From Octopus vulgaris (taxonomy: Eukaryota), in the NCBI GenBank assembly GCA_951406725.2, contig OX597822.1, positions 59,086,001 to 59,150,000 on the forward strand: a stretch of 64,000 bases of DNA, given 5' to 3'. Positions 5,819 through 45,010 of this stretch are shown here, piece after piece. The notes under the pieces are model-generated. The model worked only from the letters and a program-made list of their open reading frames with translations. It ran no database searches and was not told the origin of the DNA. Positions within the stretch are counted from its first letter, which is position 1, and every line of letters begins with the position of its first letter. The position numbers and the translations under genes are program-made.

Positions 5819-6443
5819 TAAATAAAATGAGACAACAAAGCTAAGGCTGTATAGAATTTTCAGGACATTTCTCTTTATAAATGTCCTGAAAATTCGACAC
5901 AGCTTTGCCTTTGTTGTCTCATTTTATTTAACATATACATGCTCATCATACAAAACCCACATTAGACTCCTCACTCGTATCATTATCAAACCGAGAGTTT
6001 AACTACAGTCCTTCCATAGCACATTGCGTTACCTTCCACCTTGGGTCTTCTGGATACCAATACCTCTCAGAGAATTACTATTGCTTATTTCCACTTTTTC
6101 GAGATCAGTGACTTTCCGTCACTGGAAAAAGTATATATATATTTGCATTGAAAACCACTTCCCATCGCCAACTGGTGGTTGCCACACGCTGATGACGGGT
6201 CAATACCCAGAAACTCGGGTCCGTATGTATCACGTCAGGCTGGAGATGGTAAAGATGACTTCCCTTTGCAAATATCGATAGTGCACAGAAAGTGTGTCAA
6301 TAGCCAGCTGGAGGAGATGTCTTCCTGGGGCTACAAGCTACAGTAGCATCAAGCCTTAAGAGTTAGCCACGTTTAAGTGACGAATATACTTCACGATGTC
6401 GTGTAGTTACTGTTTATACCTCGCTCAGAGATTCATTATTGCT
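5819..6443 (+). mobile_element. Hammerhead-bearing PLE/retrozyme-type insertion in a (TA)n tract with a 5' inverted repeat
   Basis: Inverted repeat 5819-5870/5879-5930. End motif ATACC..TCAGAGA.T.A.TATTGCT occurs at about 6060 and 6416. Hammerhead at 6183, TA flanks. Confidence 0.6.
6183..6227 (+). ncRNA. Type I hammerhead ribozyme (canonical core, slightly decayed stems)
   Basis: CACACG-CTGATGA-CGGGT-CAAT-ACCCA-GAAA-CTCGGG-TC-CGTATG, with one mismatch in each of stems I and II. Confidence 0.75.
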
Positions 6444-6594
6444 ATATATATATATATATATATATATATATATATATATATATATATATATATATATATA
6501 TTTATATATACATATTTATACATACATACATACATACATACATACATACATACATACATACATACATACATACATATATATATATATATATATA

Positions 6595-6895
6595 TACGAT
6601 CGCGAGGTTGTGAGTTCGAATACCGGACCGAGTTGCGTGTTGTATTCTTGAGCAAGACTCTTTATTTCACGTTGCTCCAGTTCACTCAGCTGTAGAAATG
6701 AGTTGCGACGTCACAGGTGTCAAGCTGTATCGGACTTTGCATTTCCCTTGGATAACACTGGTGGCGTGGAGAGGGGAGGCTGGTTTGCATGGGCGACTGC
6801 TGGTCTTCTATAAATAACCTTGCCCGGACTTATGCCTGGGAGGCTAACTTCCTAGGTGCATTCCCATTGTCAGTCATGACCGAAGGGGGTCTCAG
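6595..6895 (+). mobile_element. Family-R1 SINE, 5'-truncated
   Basis: B-box and body match the 37238 copy. Confidence 0.8.
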
Positions 6896-7257
6896 CATAT
6901 ATATCTTTCTGACGATGTGTTCCAACACAAAAAGTATTGGTGGAAAAATACTAATCCAAAATATATGTTGAACGTAAGCATAGCAAGTCCGGAGGATCAT
7001 TTTGAGATAGAAAGCATAACTGATCATTGTGAGCATGCTGGCTTGCTTCAGTATGTTCAGTTAAACCTTGAGGTGTGCGACCAGTTGCTGTGGTAAGAAA
7101 AAAAAAATCTCCACAAATGGTTTCAATACAGTTTTAACAGAAACATTTGGAAGAATTAGATGAATGCTTTTGGAGTTATTTTGTTTCATGTAAATAATTT
7201 AAATTAATTTAAAATTTTGTCCGCAAAATCTTATAAAATGATAATTTATCTCTTTTC

Positions 7258-7641
7258 TCTTTTACTTGTTTCAGTCATTTGACTGCGGCCATGCTGGAGC
7301 ACCACCTTTAGTCGAGGAAATCGACCCCGGGACTTATTCTTTGTACGCCCAGTACTTATTCTATCGGTCTCTTTTGCCGAACCGCTAAGTGACGGGGACG
7401 TAAACACACCAGCATCGGTGGTCAAGCAATGCTAGGGGGACAAACACGAACACACACACACACATACATATATATATATACATATATACGACAGGCTTCT
7501 TTCAGTTTCCGTCTACCAAATCCACTCACAAGGCATTGGTCGGCCCGGGGCTATAGCAGAAGACACTTGCCCAAGATGCCACGCAGTGGGACTGAACCCA
7601 GAACCATGTGGTTGGTTAGCAAGCTACTTACCACACAGCCA
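7258..7641 (-). mobile_element. tRNA-derived CORE-like SINE, family K, with internal microsatellite
   Basis: Minus strand GTGGCTGTGTGGTAAG...GGGTTCAGTCCC...CTTGGGCAAGTGTCTTC, then a (TA/TG)n slot and conserved 3' arm. Confidence 0.85.
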
Positions 7642-7704
7642 CAATATATATGTTATATTTATATATATGTTATATTTTATATGTTATATGTTATATTTAT
7701 TTAT

Positions 7705-8115
7705 TCATTTATTTGTTTGTCATTTGAATGCGGCCATACTGGAGCACCGCCTTTTGTCGAACAACTCGACTCCAGGACTTATTCTTTATAAGCCTAGTAG
7801 TACTTATTCTAACGGTCTCTTTTGCTGAACTGCTACGTTACCGGGACGTAAACACATCAACATCGGTTGTCAAGAGATGGTGAGGAGACAAACACATTGA
7901 CACACGCACACAGGCACACACACACACACACACACACACACACACACACACACACATGTATATAATGACGGGCTTCTTTCAGTTTCCGACTACCAAATCC
8001 ACTCAAGGCTTTGGTCGACCTGAGGCTATAGTAAAATATACTTACCACGTAGTGGGACTGAACCTGGGACCATGTGATTGGGAAGCAAGCTTCTTACTAC
8101 ACAGCCACGCTGCGC
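7705..8115 (-). mobile_element. Family-K SINE
   Basis: Both arms plus (CA)n. Confidence 0.8.
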
Positions 8116-9864
8116 CTATATATGAAAAAAAAAAAATTATTGTATTAGAGACCAGCCGGCCCACGGATGTGAATATCTTAATTAAAATCCAGCGACAAAA
8201 AGAACTTTTAAACCTATGCCTGTCCAAAACATTTTCTTAAGTTTTCAAGGTTTTTACTCGGCGTTTGTTTCATTCAGTCTGATAAAAGTCTACAGCTTTA
8301 CGAAGATAGCAAAGTTACTCTTAGTTATTTAGTGCTGAAATAGAAGTTTGGAAAAAACTGCAGTTCGGTTTGCGGACAAAGATATACAAGAAAGAAACAA
8401 TGTAAACTGGCAAAGTTTTTTTAAAGATTCATTGAATAATTTTTACGGACGTTATTATCTAAATTTCAATAAAGAATATGCTTCAACACACGAACTCATA
8501 TAAAGAATATTGCAAACCAAATCCAAAAACGAAACCCAATAAAGAAGTTTGAGATTTATACGTAGATAGATTTACGAGCATATGGTTACATTCATTTCTG
8601 TACGAGAATAATTTAAATTACTTTAATATGTCAGAAAATATCAGTGATACATACGCTGAAATAGCCCTGTTACATGATAAGCTATACATACATACATATA
8701 TACATACATACAAACATACATACACACGAGCGCGCGCATGCACATATACACGCACAACACACACACACACACACACACACACACACACACACACATTAAC
8801 GAATATATATGTATGTATGCTTGTGTCTAGATGTAGATGTATTTATTTATAAATATTTTAACAGTCAAAGAAATTTGATAAATCACCTCTTGCTTAATAT
8901 ATTCTCAGAGAAAAATTTAAGTCGGACAACTGTTATCAGATATGGAAGATCCGAAAAGAATTAGGTTTTATACACACACATAGAAATACACACACACACT
9001 CTCTTTCTCACACACACGCACACACACGTAACACGTTTATGTAAATATATGCATGAATGTATGTAGATGTGTGTATTTGTGTGTGTGTATGTGTGTATAC
9101 ATATATGTACGTATATATATATATATATATATACATATATATATATATATATATATATATATATATATATATATACAGATATAATTTCGTATATGTACAA
9201 ATACATACGTACGTACATACATACATATACACACACACACATATATATATATATATACATAATACATAAATATATAGCTATGCGTGTGTGGATACATGAT
9301 ATATATGTGTGTGTGTGTGTGTTTGTGCACATGTATATATATATCTATGTGTGTGTGTGTGTGTATGTGTGTATGTGGCCATACTGCATACATATAATAT
9401 TGAAATATTACTCAGGAGTTGGTGAGTTGAGCGGGATGTGAACTTTAGAATGATGTTGACATTTCAATGTTTATGGTTCTTGTCAAATGAGATCTGATTC
9501 TGATTACGTAAAACATGCTTGCATACACACATACATAGACATATATATATATATATATATATATATATATATATATATATATATATATATATATATTTAC
9601 CAAACACATACAGTTTTACATAGACCCTTGCTGACAAACACACATAACATACTTTGCACAGGCATATGTCCAAAAGAAACCGAGATTTTAAAACCAGTGC
9701 ACCAACAAACTGGCGCAGCATAAACATGGATGCAGTGCTGTGTAGGCTGGTGGTGATATTCTGTCTAATAATGACTGCATCCCGCTATATCAGCCGGTCA
9801 TGCTTGGTTGAACGTTGTGTATTTGTCAAATTGTTGCAAGTTCAACTGTGATGGCTTTAGGAAG

Positions 9865-43391: not shown

Positions 43392-43772
43392 TATATACAT
43401 ATATACCTATATATATACCTATATATATATATATATATATATATATATATATATATATGAAAATAATAGTTATCGCCATACTACCCTTGTTCGAAGGTTA
43501 TATGGATACAGTTTGTGTATCAAATAGCTAACTTAAGGCGATGGCCTCATGGAGCTAATAAGCGGACAGCTTTTTTCTTATTTTTATAAGAATGCCATAT
43601 TAGTATGGCGATAACTATTATTTTCCGGGAACGCTGCCGCTGTTCTCTTTTAGAGAGACTTAGTTATTTTAATATTTCTATTATTGAAAACAAGTGGATG
43701 TATTCCACCGAAACTAGGTAAATAAAACCATCGAACAGAGATTGTCGGAAGCGACACCTACTGGCTGGCTAC

Positions 43773-43814
43773 GCTGCATTGAAAAGGGGCAATACCCCGA
43801 AACGCGTCTGTAGC
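43773..43814 (+). ncRNA. Type I hammerhead ribozyme, array copy 1 (U3-A8 core variant)
   Basis: GCTGCA-TTGAAAA-GGGG-CAATA-CCCC-GAAA-CGCG-TC-TGTAGC: 6-bp stem I, 4-bp stem II, palindromic minimal stem III (ACGCGT), GUC cleavage triplet ending at 43808. Confidence 0.85.
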
Positions 43815-44134
43815 TGCCGGTCAAGTAGTGTGGAGCGACTGACTTCCCTTGTTCGAAGGTTATATGGATACAGTTTGTGTATCAAATAGCTAACTTAAGG
43901 CGATGGCCTCATGGAGCTAATAAGCGGACAGCTTTTTTCTTATTTTTATAAGAATGCCATATTAGTATGGCGATAACTATTATTTTCCGGGAACGCTGCC
44001 GCTGTTCTCTTTTAGAGAGACTTAGTTATTTTAATATTTCTATTATTGAAAACAAGTGGATGTATTCCACCGAAACTAGGTAAATAAAACCATCGAACAG
44101 AGATTGTCGGAAGCGACACCTACTGGCTGGCTAC

Positions 44135-44176
44135 GCTGCATTGAAAAGGGGCAATACCCCGAAACGCGTCTGTAGC
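44135..44176 (+). ncRNA. Type I hammerhead ribozyme, array copy 2
   Basis: Identical motif 362 bp downstream of copy 1. Confidence 0.85.
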
Positions 44177-44496
44177 TGCCGGTCAAGTAGTGTGGAGCGA
44201 CTGACCTCCCTTGTTCGAAGGTTATATGGATACAGTTTGTGTATCAAATAGCTAACTTAAGGCGATGGCCTCATGGAGCTAATAAGCGGACAGCTTTTTT
44301 CTTATTTTTATAAGAATGCCATATTAGTATGGCGATAACTATTATTTTCCGGGAACGCTGCCGCTGTTCTCTTTTAGAGAGACTTAGTTATTTTAATATT
44401 TCTATTATTGAAAACAAGTGGATGTATTCCACCGAAACTAGGTAAATAAAACCATCGAACAGAGATTGTCGGAAGCGACACCTACTGGCTGGCTAC

Positions 44497-44538
44497 GCTG
44501 CATTGAAAAGGGGCAATACCCCGAAACGCGTCTGTAGC
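44497..44538 (+). ncRNA. Type I hammerhead ribozyme, array copy 3
   Basis: Identical motif 724 bp downstream of copy 1. Confidence 0.85.
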
Positions 44539-45010
44539 TGCCGGTCAAGTAGTGTGGAGCGACTGACCTCCCTTGTTCGAAGGTTATATGGATACAGTTT
44601 GTGTATCAAATAGCTAACTTAAGGCGATGGCCTCATGGAGCTAATAAGCGGACAGCTTTTTTCTTATTTTTATAAGAATGCCATATTAGTATGGCGATAA
44701 CTATTATTTTCCGGGAACGCTGCCGCTGTTCTCTTTTAGAGAGACTTAGTTATTTTAATATTTCTATATATATATGTATGTATATATATGTATAATATAT
44801 ATATGTATGTATATATGTCTGTATACATATATATATGTGTATATATATGTATATATATATGTATATATATATTATATATATGTATATATACGTATATATA
44901 TATATATATATATATATATATATATATATATATATATATATATATATATATATATATATATGCATAAACGCACATGAGCGAGATTTAAACAGTTGGAGTA
45001 TGGAATCGTA

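Follow-up and report, generated by a model that had tools for sequence, protein, structure and literature searches.

A 64-kb stretch of the Octopus vulgaris genome (contig OX597822.1, positions 59,086,001 to 59,150,000; hereafter, the window) carries three repeat units of roughly 360 nt, A, B, and C, which raise the question of what they are and which enzyme copies them. Penelope-like elements (PLEs) are the presumed helpers of animal retrozymes, and the published work, as far as its main text goes, gives no cis-signal or direct trace of such help. The original prediction described the three units as a structured noncoding retroelement superfamily, whose conserved hairpin and end motif would be signals for a PLE reverse transcriptase (RT) that targets TA microsatellites. 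We find that A, B, and C belong to three high-copy families of non-LTR retrozymes, a known kind of element, and that their insertion scars point to how the Penelope-type retrotransposon enzyme copies these repeats.

Retrozyme copies in the window

The copies and their parts are collected in Table 1. Periods of about 357, 362, and 362 bp had been predicted, and we obtained 356 (from the end motif at 6064 to that at 6420), 362, and 362. The end motif was likewise recovered next to (TA)n, at 6064/6420, 11138/11500, and 43645/44007/44369/44731, with the last copy of each lying on (TA)n. The hairpins reported at 6106, 11182, and 43694 (H6) are present, but the GAAA said to follow them is not a general feature: families I and J lack it, as does the majority sequence of B. 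Hammerhead cores do lie 81, 84, and 85 nt from the hairpin GTG, as claimed (6189, 11268, and 43779/44141/44503); each hammerhead has stems I and II, the GAAA, a stem III that is short and (nearly) palindromic, and GUC at the cut, and a strict scan of both strands of the 64 kb returned only these five sites. The CAAU noted in the stem II loops fails as a clan signal, since only four of nine majority sequences (A, B, C, and F) have it. The family C direct arm is 99-100% identical to copies genome-wide. The family D element in the window gave no match to the retrozyme profile.

Table 1. Positions of retrozyme copies, their structural parts, and a neighboring PLE in the window
Feature	Position	Strand	Remarks
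Family A retrozyme copy	6060..6443	+	Period 356, unit count ~1.1; 5'-truncated; long 3' end adjoins (TA)n
Hairpin H6 of A (hairpin of the original prediction), covarying	6106..6124	+	3' of long start site on RNA
Type I hammerhead of A	6183..6227	+	Core at 6189 is CUGAUGA; stem I has one mismatch; predicted to cut after 6221
Tail hairpin/end motif of A and long 3' end	6420..6443	+	Short site predicted at ~6397
Family B retrozyme copy	11084..11533	+	Period 362, unit count ~1.25; long 3' end adjoins (TA)n; predicted short site ~11479
Hairpin H6 of B	11182..11200	+	
Type I hammerhead of B	11262..11306	+	Core CCGACGA here, CCGAUGA in majority; predicted cut after 11300
Decayed Neptune-type PLE (family D), outside the clan	15373..18400	-	Own long-stem-II hammerhead at 15516
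Family F 3' fragment	27967..28062	-	Ends at long site
Inverted 25-nt arm of family C insertion (L016)	43459..43483	-	Ends at short site on left (TA)n; absent from original prediction
Family C direct arm	43484..44767	+	Period 362 nt, unit count 3.5; long 3' end adjoins (TA)n
Covarying hairpin H1, first C unit	43505..43521	+	Recurs every 362 nt
Covarying helix H3 of C	43562..43640	+	Double change in 8/8 pairs; encloses hairpin H3b and short start site
Hairpin H6 of C	43694..43708	+	Also at 44056 and 44418
Type I hammerhead of C, U3-A8 core variant	43773..43814	+	Predicted cut after 43808, also 44170 and 44532
Family E copy, same clan	44976..45273	.	Tail-out inverted pair; absent from original prediction
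Family F copy, same clan	50255..50526	.	Tail-out inverted pair between (TA)n tracts

A clan of at least nine families

Six further families were found, giving at least nine in the clan, with monomers of 353-366 nt that are mostly 44-58% identical; the nine are not independent and include three close pairs. That A, B, and C have little overall identity proved overstated: their majority monomers are ~58-60% identical when aligned globally in pairs (z = 10-14 relative to 200 dinucleotide shuffles, or 8-12 once the ribozyme is removed) and 48-53% identical within the nine-family multiple alignment. Since they align end to end well above shuffles, they are diverged homologues rather than unrelated sequences. 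Candidate sites number at least 4960 for family A, 2117 for B, 1072 for C, 1683 for E, 810 for F, 2772 for G, 548 for I, and 1063 for J. Copies are near-identical in the young families C and F, and families E, I, and J are old. A random sample of the genome (20 stretches, 200 kb) held a single clan locus (L138, family C2) besides two further hammerhead repeats.

A hammerhead, identified by our own descriptor together with stem I covariation, is carried by all nine majority monomers and, in the window, by 3/3 full C units as well as by A and B. Rfam returned no hammerhead among the 150 of 243 matches listed for the whole window at E <= 1, which were microsatellite-driven miRNA and similar noise, and none for the C array at E <= 10, where 4/4 matches were by chance. 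Variant cores alternate within the clan (CUGAUGA, CCGAUGA, UUGAAAA, UUGACAA, CUGAGGA, CCGAGGA, and CUGAAGA). The hammerheads probably act as dimers, given their short, palindromic stem III.

The GC content of the A, B, and C monomers is 0.42-0.46, and no ORF of >=110 aa was found across the three window units. Tandem arms reach >4 units, and copies range from monomers to multimers. With a type I hammerhead per unit, a short noncoding monomer, GC below 50%, no apparent LTR organization, and duplications of >4 bp, the clan has the tested features of non-LTR retrozymes, so a new superfamily is not supported. Nor are the units autonomous PLEs with an RT and GIY-YIG ORF: they are noncoding, and adjacent RT-profile matches are separate elements or chimeras. 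What stands of the original prediction is a structured noncoding retroelement clan with real covariation, 3' ends at fixed positions, and integration scars of the PLE type, together with two fusions to Neptune-type PLE sequence.

Family C words occurred in 20 of the 24 sequencing-run rows listed, all as contigs, and none of these rows was an RNA set. Two runs (X11 and X16) gave one 392-nt contig each (362+30), which fits a circle and a tandem array equally. No molecule starts or ends were seen in four sequencing-run contig sets with family C.

One conserved RNA shape

The clan keeps one whole-monomer RNA shape while half of its letters have changed. The fold consists of the ribozyme on a long rod, followed by H1, H2, H3 with H3b, the tail hairpin, and H6. 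The covariation originally claimed is real: non-ribozyme pairs with compensatory change exceed shuffled, slid, and simulated controls. Across 15 real copies, and counting non-ribozyme pairs only, double changes were found in 21/35 pairs (55 cells), compared with 13.0 pairs (1/500 as high) and 21.4 cells (0/500 as high) after shuffling and 6-13 pairs after sliding. The nine-family consensus, ribozyme pairs included, has 55 pairs, of which 36 show double change and 29 are clean, whereas 500 neutral tree simulations gave a maximum of 6 clean pairs; the fold was derived from the same sequences on which covariation was scored.

In addition, circular MFE gave z values of -4.9 to -8.9 per family (eight families), and RNAalifold by itself recovers H6, H1, and H3. 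The rod pairs are mostly family-specific, and the structure conservation index is low (0.34, nine families) because the rod does not align. The end motif hairpin is conserved but barely covaries.

Two 3' end sites and their pairing

The original prediction of a fixed 3' end holds insofar as the ends are fixed, but there are two sites, ~175 nt (169-179 in all nine families) and 219-242 nt past the ribozyme cut, and the short one lacks the CTCT..AGAGA motif. Among the best 40 candidates per search, for which ends were scored, 231/293 arm 3' ends are on-site, and the 62/293 that are off-site belong mostly to the old families E, I, and J. Long ends are favored in this sample because most queries contained the tail. 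Each site lies 12-23 nt 3' of a short conserved hairpin, and from family to family the long site shifts by ~10 nt, with little change in the distance from the tail hairpin to H6. Among 107 tail-out junctions, both ends were on-site in 67, and these comprised 66 long+short, 1 long+long, and 0 short+short pairs (66/67, p = 5e-19 against 50%). The two sites and their long/short pairing match the two internal RT starts and the "tail" known for PLEs. The clan shows two fixed internal 3' ends, 5' truncation, and tandem and inverted arms, all of them features of PLE-mobilized elements.

Arms read through the cut site in 208/283 cases. The 5' ends of families C and F combined depart somewhat from uniformity (KS p = 0.004), with 14 falling at most 5 nt from the cut where 8.6 were expected, so some templates may be linear and cleaved. 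Private variants present in all units of an insertion numbered 0 in C, 11 in F (7 in L166, which has one arm of at least 4.6 units), and 12 in B, and single-unit variants numbered 48, 42, and 164, respectively. The all-unit variants fit one template per insertion, with a circle, a multimer, and later homogenization fitting alike. The inverted arms are themselves multimeric and end on-site.

Target sites and candidate PLE partners

Copy ends finish in AT or CT adjoining (TA)n. A link between (TA)n targeting and the fold or end motif was not borne out: family G, at 96% identity, keeps both and has 0/24 on-site ends in (TA)n. Duplications of ~7-12 bp, read by eye, flank ~6/15 G loci and some non-TA B copies; within (TA)n, target duplications are masked. 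Target choice would thus be set by the partner endonuclease rather than by the fold.

Two of 40 insertions of family C, the youngest, are fused to young Neptune-type PLE sequence, and two different PLE families are involved. At L022, the N1 pLTR and N1 mid-ORF run into a 545-nt stretch of C, the two overlapping by 2 nt; this stretch ends at the short site, on (TA)n, and the N1 part is 99.8% identical to an intact 778-aa element. At L024, a C arm is joined to the pLTR of an N3-like family (97-99% identical), although this could be an insertion beside an older copy. The two fusions suggest template switching. Retrozyme-PLE adjacencies numbered six. Three loci were rejected as fusions, being neighbors at a shared target (L048, L083, and L252, the last not read base by base), and L035 was set aside as ambiguous (74% old PLE).

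In the partner search, which covered one clade, a single Neptune-type query was used and 59 of 29,087 candidates were scored. The candidate partner elements N1-N5 and family D are presumably of the Neptune clade. The five intact Neptune-type families found in this search share neither monomer sequence nor start-site offsets with the clan, and nhmmer gave a single -0.7-bit match at E <= 10. The original prediction had suggested checking whether autonomous PLE 3' ends carry the clan's hairpin and end motif, and both are absent from these five families; homology to a pLTR was likewise absent for the five and for family D. PLE ends lie at ~+52 and +200 in N1, ~+108 and +192 in the N3-like family, and +37 in N5. 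Autonomous pLTRs, which lack the clan fold, also show two ends. Family D was rejected as a partner: it is old (~75% aa identity between copies), its pLTR layout differs, and its hammerhead lies ~50 nt from the end. A word-index protein search found no longer relatives of the D fragment. Relatives show the order RT, Zn-finger-like cysteine linker, and C-terminal GIY-YIG, as reported for Neptune and Nematis (PMC8557442). Pfam gave a sub-threshold GIY-YIG in 1/5 relatives and none in the D fragments.

Proposed mechanism and alternatives

Taking the steps jointly, we consider it likely that this is a retrozyme clan with one conserved fold that is copied by a PLE protein from two internal starts. 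By analogy with known retrozymes, a tandem copy would be transcribed, and its hammerheads would cut out a ~360-nt monomer that is ligated to a circle. The monomer RNA would adopt the single shape seen through covariation, with the rod mostly family-specific. A PLE protein, likely a dimer, would nick both target strands ~8-12 bp apart, and reverse transcription would start at the two internal sites seen as copy ends, with a presumed role for the short hairpins 5' of them. The RT would then pass the ribozyme junction, for up to >4 units, giving the observed tandem, 5'-truncated, and tail-out inverted copies with one long and one short end. Since H6 lies 3' of both start sites, it is regenerated only by a copy of at least one full turn, which would favor circular or tandem templates of constant size. 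We infer that the hairpins serve as cis-signals for the RT. More tentatively, the clan may be an old lineage of viroid-sized circular RNA, unlike any PLE terminus, that recruits several Neptune-type proteins by shape alone, with two hairpins placing two protein subunits at two starts so that both nicks are primed in one coordinated event.

The fold might instead serve RNA survival (ligation, circle stability, ribozyme control, or transcription) rather than RT docking, with PLE starts set by AU-rich single strands annealing to the nicked target. We regard this as possible but doubtful. Copy ends in AT or CT beside (TA)n are compatible with such microhomology, the two ends of pLTRs that lack the fold agree with it, and so does the drift of the long site by ~10 nt at a similar tail-hairpin-to-H6 spacing; against this, family G has the same two positions on non-TA targets, the short site stays within its narrow range in all nine families, and PLE initiation proceeds without target homology, in a stem-loop, and requires RNA 3' of the start (PMC11167929). 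It is less likely still that the units are detached pLTRs of unfound autonomous PLE families, i.e., solo 3' ends that were later tandemized by unequal crossover and whose fold is the pLTR fold. Precedent comes from Xenopus, where 24/57 retrozyme families match known TEs and 21/22 are PLEs (10.64898/2026.07.22.740005), and our partner search was narrow, with a stricter first look. However, in the loci examined the units are preceded on their 5' side by a further unit, sometimes inverted, or by unique flank, a PLE ORF stands directly upstream solely in L022 and L035 by RT-profile scan, and local crossover would not yield inverted arms that are multimeric and on-site.

Spread without a PLE, by a LINE RT in trans or by DNA-level rolling circle, with the shared fold reflecting ancestry and alignment choices, seems to us very improbable. 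It would agree with the lack of a sequence link between intact PLE pLTRs and the clan, and with remnants in the window that we take to be LINE-type. Yet there is neither poly(A) nor 3'-terminal priming, fusions to PLE sequence exist, covariation exceeds the tree-simulated null, and the copies bear hallmarks of PLEs, namely tails, tail-out inversions, a pair of internal ends, and duplications of 8-10 bp (PMC8557442, PMC3846280).

Copying of a retrozyme clan by PLE proteins, our preferred reading, can be approached experimentally. The genome offers a 360-nt template in nine natural versions, whose fold has covariation support and whose two start sites are mapped, as well as a target-switched family, near-identical young families (C and F), intact candidate enzymes, and two template-switch-like fusions. 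Retrozyme recognition and copying are thereby directly testable in the published in vitro PLE assay, and a compact RNA directing two-strand target-primed insertion would be of interest as a genome-writing template.

Comparison with known systems

The closest kind is the animal non-LTR retrozymes (Cervera and de la Pena 2020, PMC7229834), especially the mussel repeats of ~350-390 bp. As described in the main text of that study, these share with the clan a type I hammerhead, short tandem noncoding repeats, GC below 50%, duplications of >4 bp, and thousands of copies, and PLEs are proposed there as the mobilizer. That main text presents no cross-family covarying fold, paired 3' start sites, or PLE chimeras, all three of which are seen in our clan; conversely, it demonstrates circRNA and cleavage, whereas the clan is known from its sequence.

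Xenopus retrozymes have been described as nonautonomous PLE derivatives (Li, Clavereau, Pollet 2026, 10.64898/2026.07.22.740005). As in the clan, they co-occur with Neptune-type PLEs, comprise many families per genome, and range from monomers to multimers; only 1/9 dimers cleaved. Xenopus families often match pLTRs, whereas 0/9 clan families match those of the five intact families or decayed D. That model has tandems arise by local amplification, but our inverted arms are already multimeric at insertion.

Minimal and variant PLE hammerheads (PMC4209133) resemble those of the clan in their weak palindromic helix III, implying dimeric cleavage, and in the U3-A8 core variant, but in the clan the variant cores alternate inside one homologous group. 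Two internal RT starts, a tail, and two-strand nicking have been demonstrated in vitro for a PLE, Poseidon of Anolis (PMC11167929). The clan shares with PLEs (PMC11167929, PMC8557442, PMC3846280) two internal starts that define a tail, the presence of this tail on one arm of an inverted pair, targets that are AT-rich or microsatellites, duplications of 8-10 bp, a hammerhead upstream of the starts, and an uncleaved template. In contrast to these PLEs, the clan unit is noncoding and 360 nt long, with tails of ~43-62 nt rather than 30-40. The clan also differs in that its start positions are conserved across families that are ~50% identical and in that long+short pairing can be quantified (66/67).

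Three homologous units within a clan of nine hammerhead families

The three units of the original prediction are present as described, and a descriptor scan of both strands of the window placed five type I hammerheads, all within them (see table). Each of the five carries GAAA, a GUC cut site, and a short stem III that is palindromic or nearly so. The hairpins, the end motifs, and the 81-, 84-, and 85-nt spacings from hairpin to core were all borne out, as were the periods of 362 for the second and third units (families B and C), whereas the first (family A) repeats at 356 rather than ~357. 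Homology between A, B, and C extends over the full monomer (z of 10-14, and 8-12 without the ribozyme), so the "little overall identity" ascribed to them understates their kinship.

Coordinates of the retrozyme and Penelope-like element (PLE) features
Feature	Position	Strand	Remark
Unit, family A	window 6060-6443		
Unit, family B	window 11084-11533		
Unit, family C	window 43484-44767		
Hammerhead core, A	window 6189		descriptor scan
Hammerhead core, B	window 11268		descriptor scan
Hammerhead cores, C	window 43779 / 44141 / 44503		descriptor scan
Inverted arm of C insertion	window 43459-43483		25 nt
Decayed Neptune-type PLE (D)	window 15373-18400	-	own, different hammerhead end
Intact PLE families	L223-L232, e.g., G000:C5:2194700-2199200, C1:194226300-194230600		

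Each unit comes from a different high-copy family of the 2.8-Gb, microsatellite-rich, animal-type genome. First-look searches returned 4960 (A), 2117 (B), and 1072 (C) candidates genome-wide, with ~87%, ~93%, and ~100% identity to the window copy among the best 40 scored in each search; 30 loci were excised per family. A combined A+B+C profile uncovered additional homologues, both elsewhere in the window and beside excised loci, and genome searches with these yielded families E, F, G, I, and J (12-20 loci each) plus C2, which rests on 2 loci only. The nine majority monomers are 353-366 nt long and share 44-58% pairwise identity, except A/E (78%), C/C2 (87%), and I/J (70%). Pieces of further clan families, outside the majority sequences, lie at L036:550-697 (-), L015:193-257 (-), and L201:2093-2263, and a loose end in one sequencing run (X1) resembles the L036-type fragment.

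Hammerhead-like motifs that fall outside the clan profile were found at L132:5092 (-), L132:5753 (+), L139:9691 (-), and window 23683 (-). Another, in L106, 1361 nt past a PLE match, shares its stem I with family C and has a different core, with no match to the clan profile. The window also holds a 266-nt tandem duplication (30357-30862; 1.9 copies, 95%), in which the descriptor scan found no hammerhead, and two remnants that, judging by translation, we take to resemble a restriction-like-endonuclease non-LTR element (19232-19762, -) and an RTE-type LINE (39249-40708, +). In addition, family C words (window 44406-44767) occur at 0.91-1.00 in runs of six organism labels from 13 studies, and in two runs under other labels the C unit is identical; close relatives, mixed samples, or transfer may each account for this.

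The monomer fold covaries across families

Folded as circles, eight families each gave z of -4.9 to -8.9 (25 shuffles each; J was folded without shuffles), and the window C unit gave -7.1. Most families share a layout in which the ribozyme sits on a long rod, followed by helices H1, H2, H3, the tail hairpin (the end motif), and H6 (the predicted hairpin), with H3 enclosing hairpins (H3b among them) and the short 3' end site; F departs from it in H1-H3 when folded on its own. A sequence-only alignment of the nine majority monomers yielded a consensus of -42.1 kcal/mol and 55 pairs, ribozyme included, of which 36 show a double change, 29 of them with at most one broken cell. Under a neutral null devised for this analysis, which likewise counts ribozyme pairs, 40 simulations on the family tree refolded to +3.8 +/- 1.9 kcal/mol, and 500 with fixed structure reached at most 6 clean double-change pairs against the real 29.

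RNAalifold, unaided on 15 real genomic copies, recovered H6, H1, and H3, with double changes in 15 of 17 pairs. Across 15 copies, 84.7% of cells in the 35 non-ribozyme pairs are paired, and double changes occur in 21 pairs (55 cells), compared with shuffled values of 13.0 (21.4), the real value being reached in 1/500 (pairs) and 0/500 (cells) and slid structures giving 6-13 pairs; these counts come from related rows, a structure derived from the same sequences, and an unaligned rod. The structure conservation index is low (0.34). By helix, double changes affect 8/8 pairs in H3, 4/6 in H6, 4/5 in H1, 2/5 in H3b, and 1/4 in the tail hairpin, so the predicted hairpin covaries whereas the end motif is mainly sequence-conserved. 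Two proposed common features proved patchy: GAAA after H6 is missing from the B majority, I, and J, and CAAU is present in 4 of the 9 majority stem II loops.

Two 3' end sites, their targets, and inversions

After removal of seven duplicate loci, 293 arm 3' ends were placed relative to the ribozyme cut, and 231 of them fell at two sites: a short one (90 ends at 169-179) and a long one (141 ends at 219-242). The 62 off-site ends belong chiefly to old families. The share of on-site ends that directly adjoin (TA)-rich sequence is 22/35 (A), 39/47 (B), 39/43 (C), 11/23 (E), 29/30 (F), 3/3 (C2), 0/24 (G), 2/15 (I), and 2/11 (J). Copies of G (96% identity, younger than A) show target duplications of ~7-12 bp in place of (TA). 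This family (L181-L195) keeps the clan fold and start sites, with an AUA cut triplet, visible target duplications, and no (TA)n targeting.

Among 107 tail-out inversions (inverted pairs of arms with 3' ends outward), both ends are on-site in 67, comprising 66 long+short, 1 long+long, and 0 short+short pairs; the choice of query biases toward long ends, yet cannot explain the scarcity of long+long pairs. The cut site is read through in 208 of 283 arms (longest, 4.4 units unclipped). Fourteen arms stop within 5 nt of the cut, against 8.6 expected, and the 5' ends of C and F together are slightly enriched directly after it (KS p = 0.004).

PLEs and their fusions with retrozymes

The hammerhead of D has a ~70-nt insert in stem II, and its cut site lies ~50 nt from the TA junction; its C-terminal piece drew 19,495 first-look candidates, other families among them. 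With a query built from relatives in a representative sequence library and a stricter first look (59 of 29,087 candidates scored), we identified five intact Neptune-type families (N1-N5), with ORFs of 711-842 aa and mutual identity mostly of 32-49%. In all five, a hammerhead-like motif precedes the ATG by 145-254 nt (by scan in N1-N3, by eye in N4 and N5), and the ends are fixed near TA. Autonomous PLE ends had been expected to share the retrozyme signals, but none of the five families matches the retrozyme profile, and their end offsets also differ. N5 (727-aa frame), with dozens of near-identical full-length matches, looks recently active. Beside the D 3' end, the segment at window 14950-15370, with (TA)n on both sides, contains stretches that recur within it as repeats or in inverted form and is possibly another small PLE-type insertion.

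A scan of excised loci for retrozyme-PLE adjacency, covering all but the D loci and ten PLE loci, gave six cases. In L022:1364-2535 (-), 150 nt of N1 terminal repeat (pLTR; 94%) and 475 nt of N1 mid-ORF (99.8%) are followed by 545 nt of C, which starts 8 nt before the cut and stops on (TA)n, at the short site. As N1 does not normally have its 3' end within the ORF, the simplest reading is a template switch from C RNA to N1 mRNA. In the tail-out insertion L024:1363-2705, C sequence in the right arm gives way to pLTR sequence from a young, N3-like family. Both appear to be template-switch-like chimeras; 2 of 40 C insertions (25 loci and 15 5' flanks) are fused to a PLE, which links C to Neptune-type reverse transcriptases without singling out one.

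Relation to known elements

The feature is real, and on every feature testable here the clan is one of non-LTR retrozymes, not a new superfamily. Retrozymes and their PLE link are already in print (10.64898/2026.07.22.740005, PMC7229834), as are a tail carried by one of two inverted arms, a bias toward microsatellites, and initiation at two sites (PMC11167929, PMC8557442, PMC3846280); PMC4209133 describes minimal and variant PLE hammerheads. New in the clan are the conserved whole-monomer fold and the genomic evidence on copying. Observed directly here are the covariation of the fold, the two start sites, the long+short pairing, the cut-site read-through, the duplications, and the fusions. In the literature searched, PMC8490949 included and with most subscription papers outside its scope, we found neither a retrozyme fold described as covarying between families, nor mapped retrozyme start sites, nor retrozyme-PLE chimeras. 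Repeat catalogues such as Repbase and Dfam may already list these families.

From the literature, copying would involve hammerhead cleavage as dimers, ligation to circles, and a dimeric protein nicking both target strands. We infer that a conserved hairpin (H3b or the tail hairpin) sits 12-23 nt 5' of each start, with H6 3' of both starts, and that only full-turn copies would regenerate all three. These positions make H3b, the tail hairpin, and H6 candidate docking signals, as does a likeness to a known system: the position of H6 resembles that in the Anolis element, where RNA downstream of the start is reported to be needed (PMC11167929).
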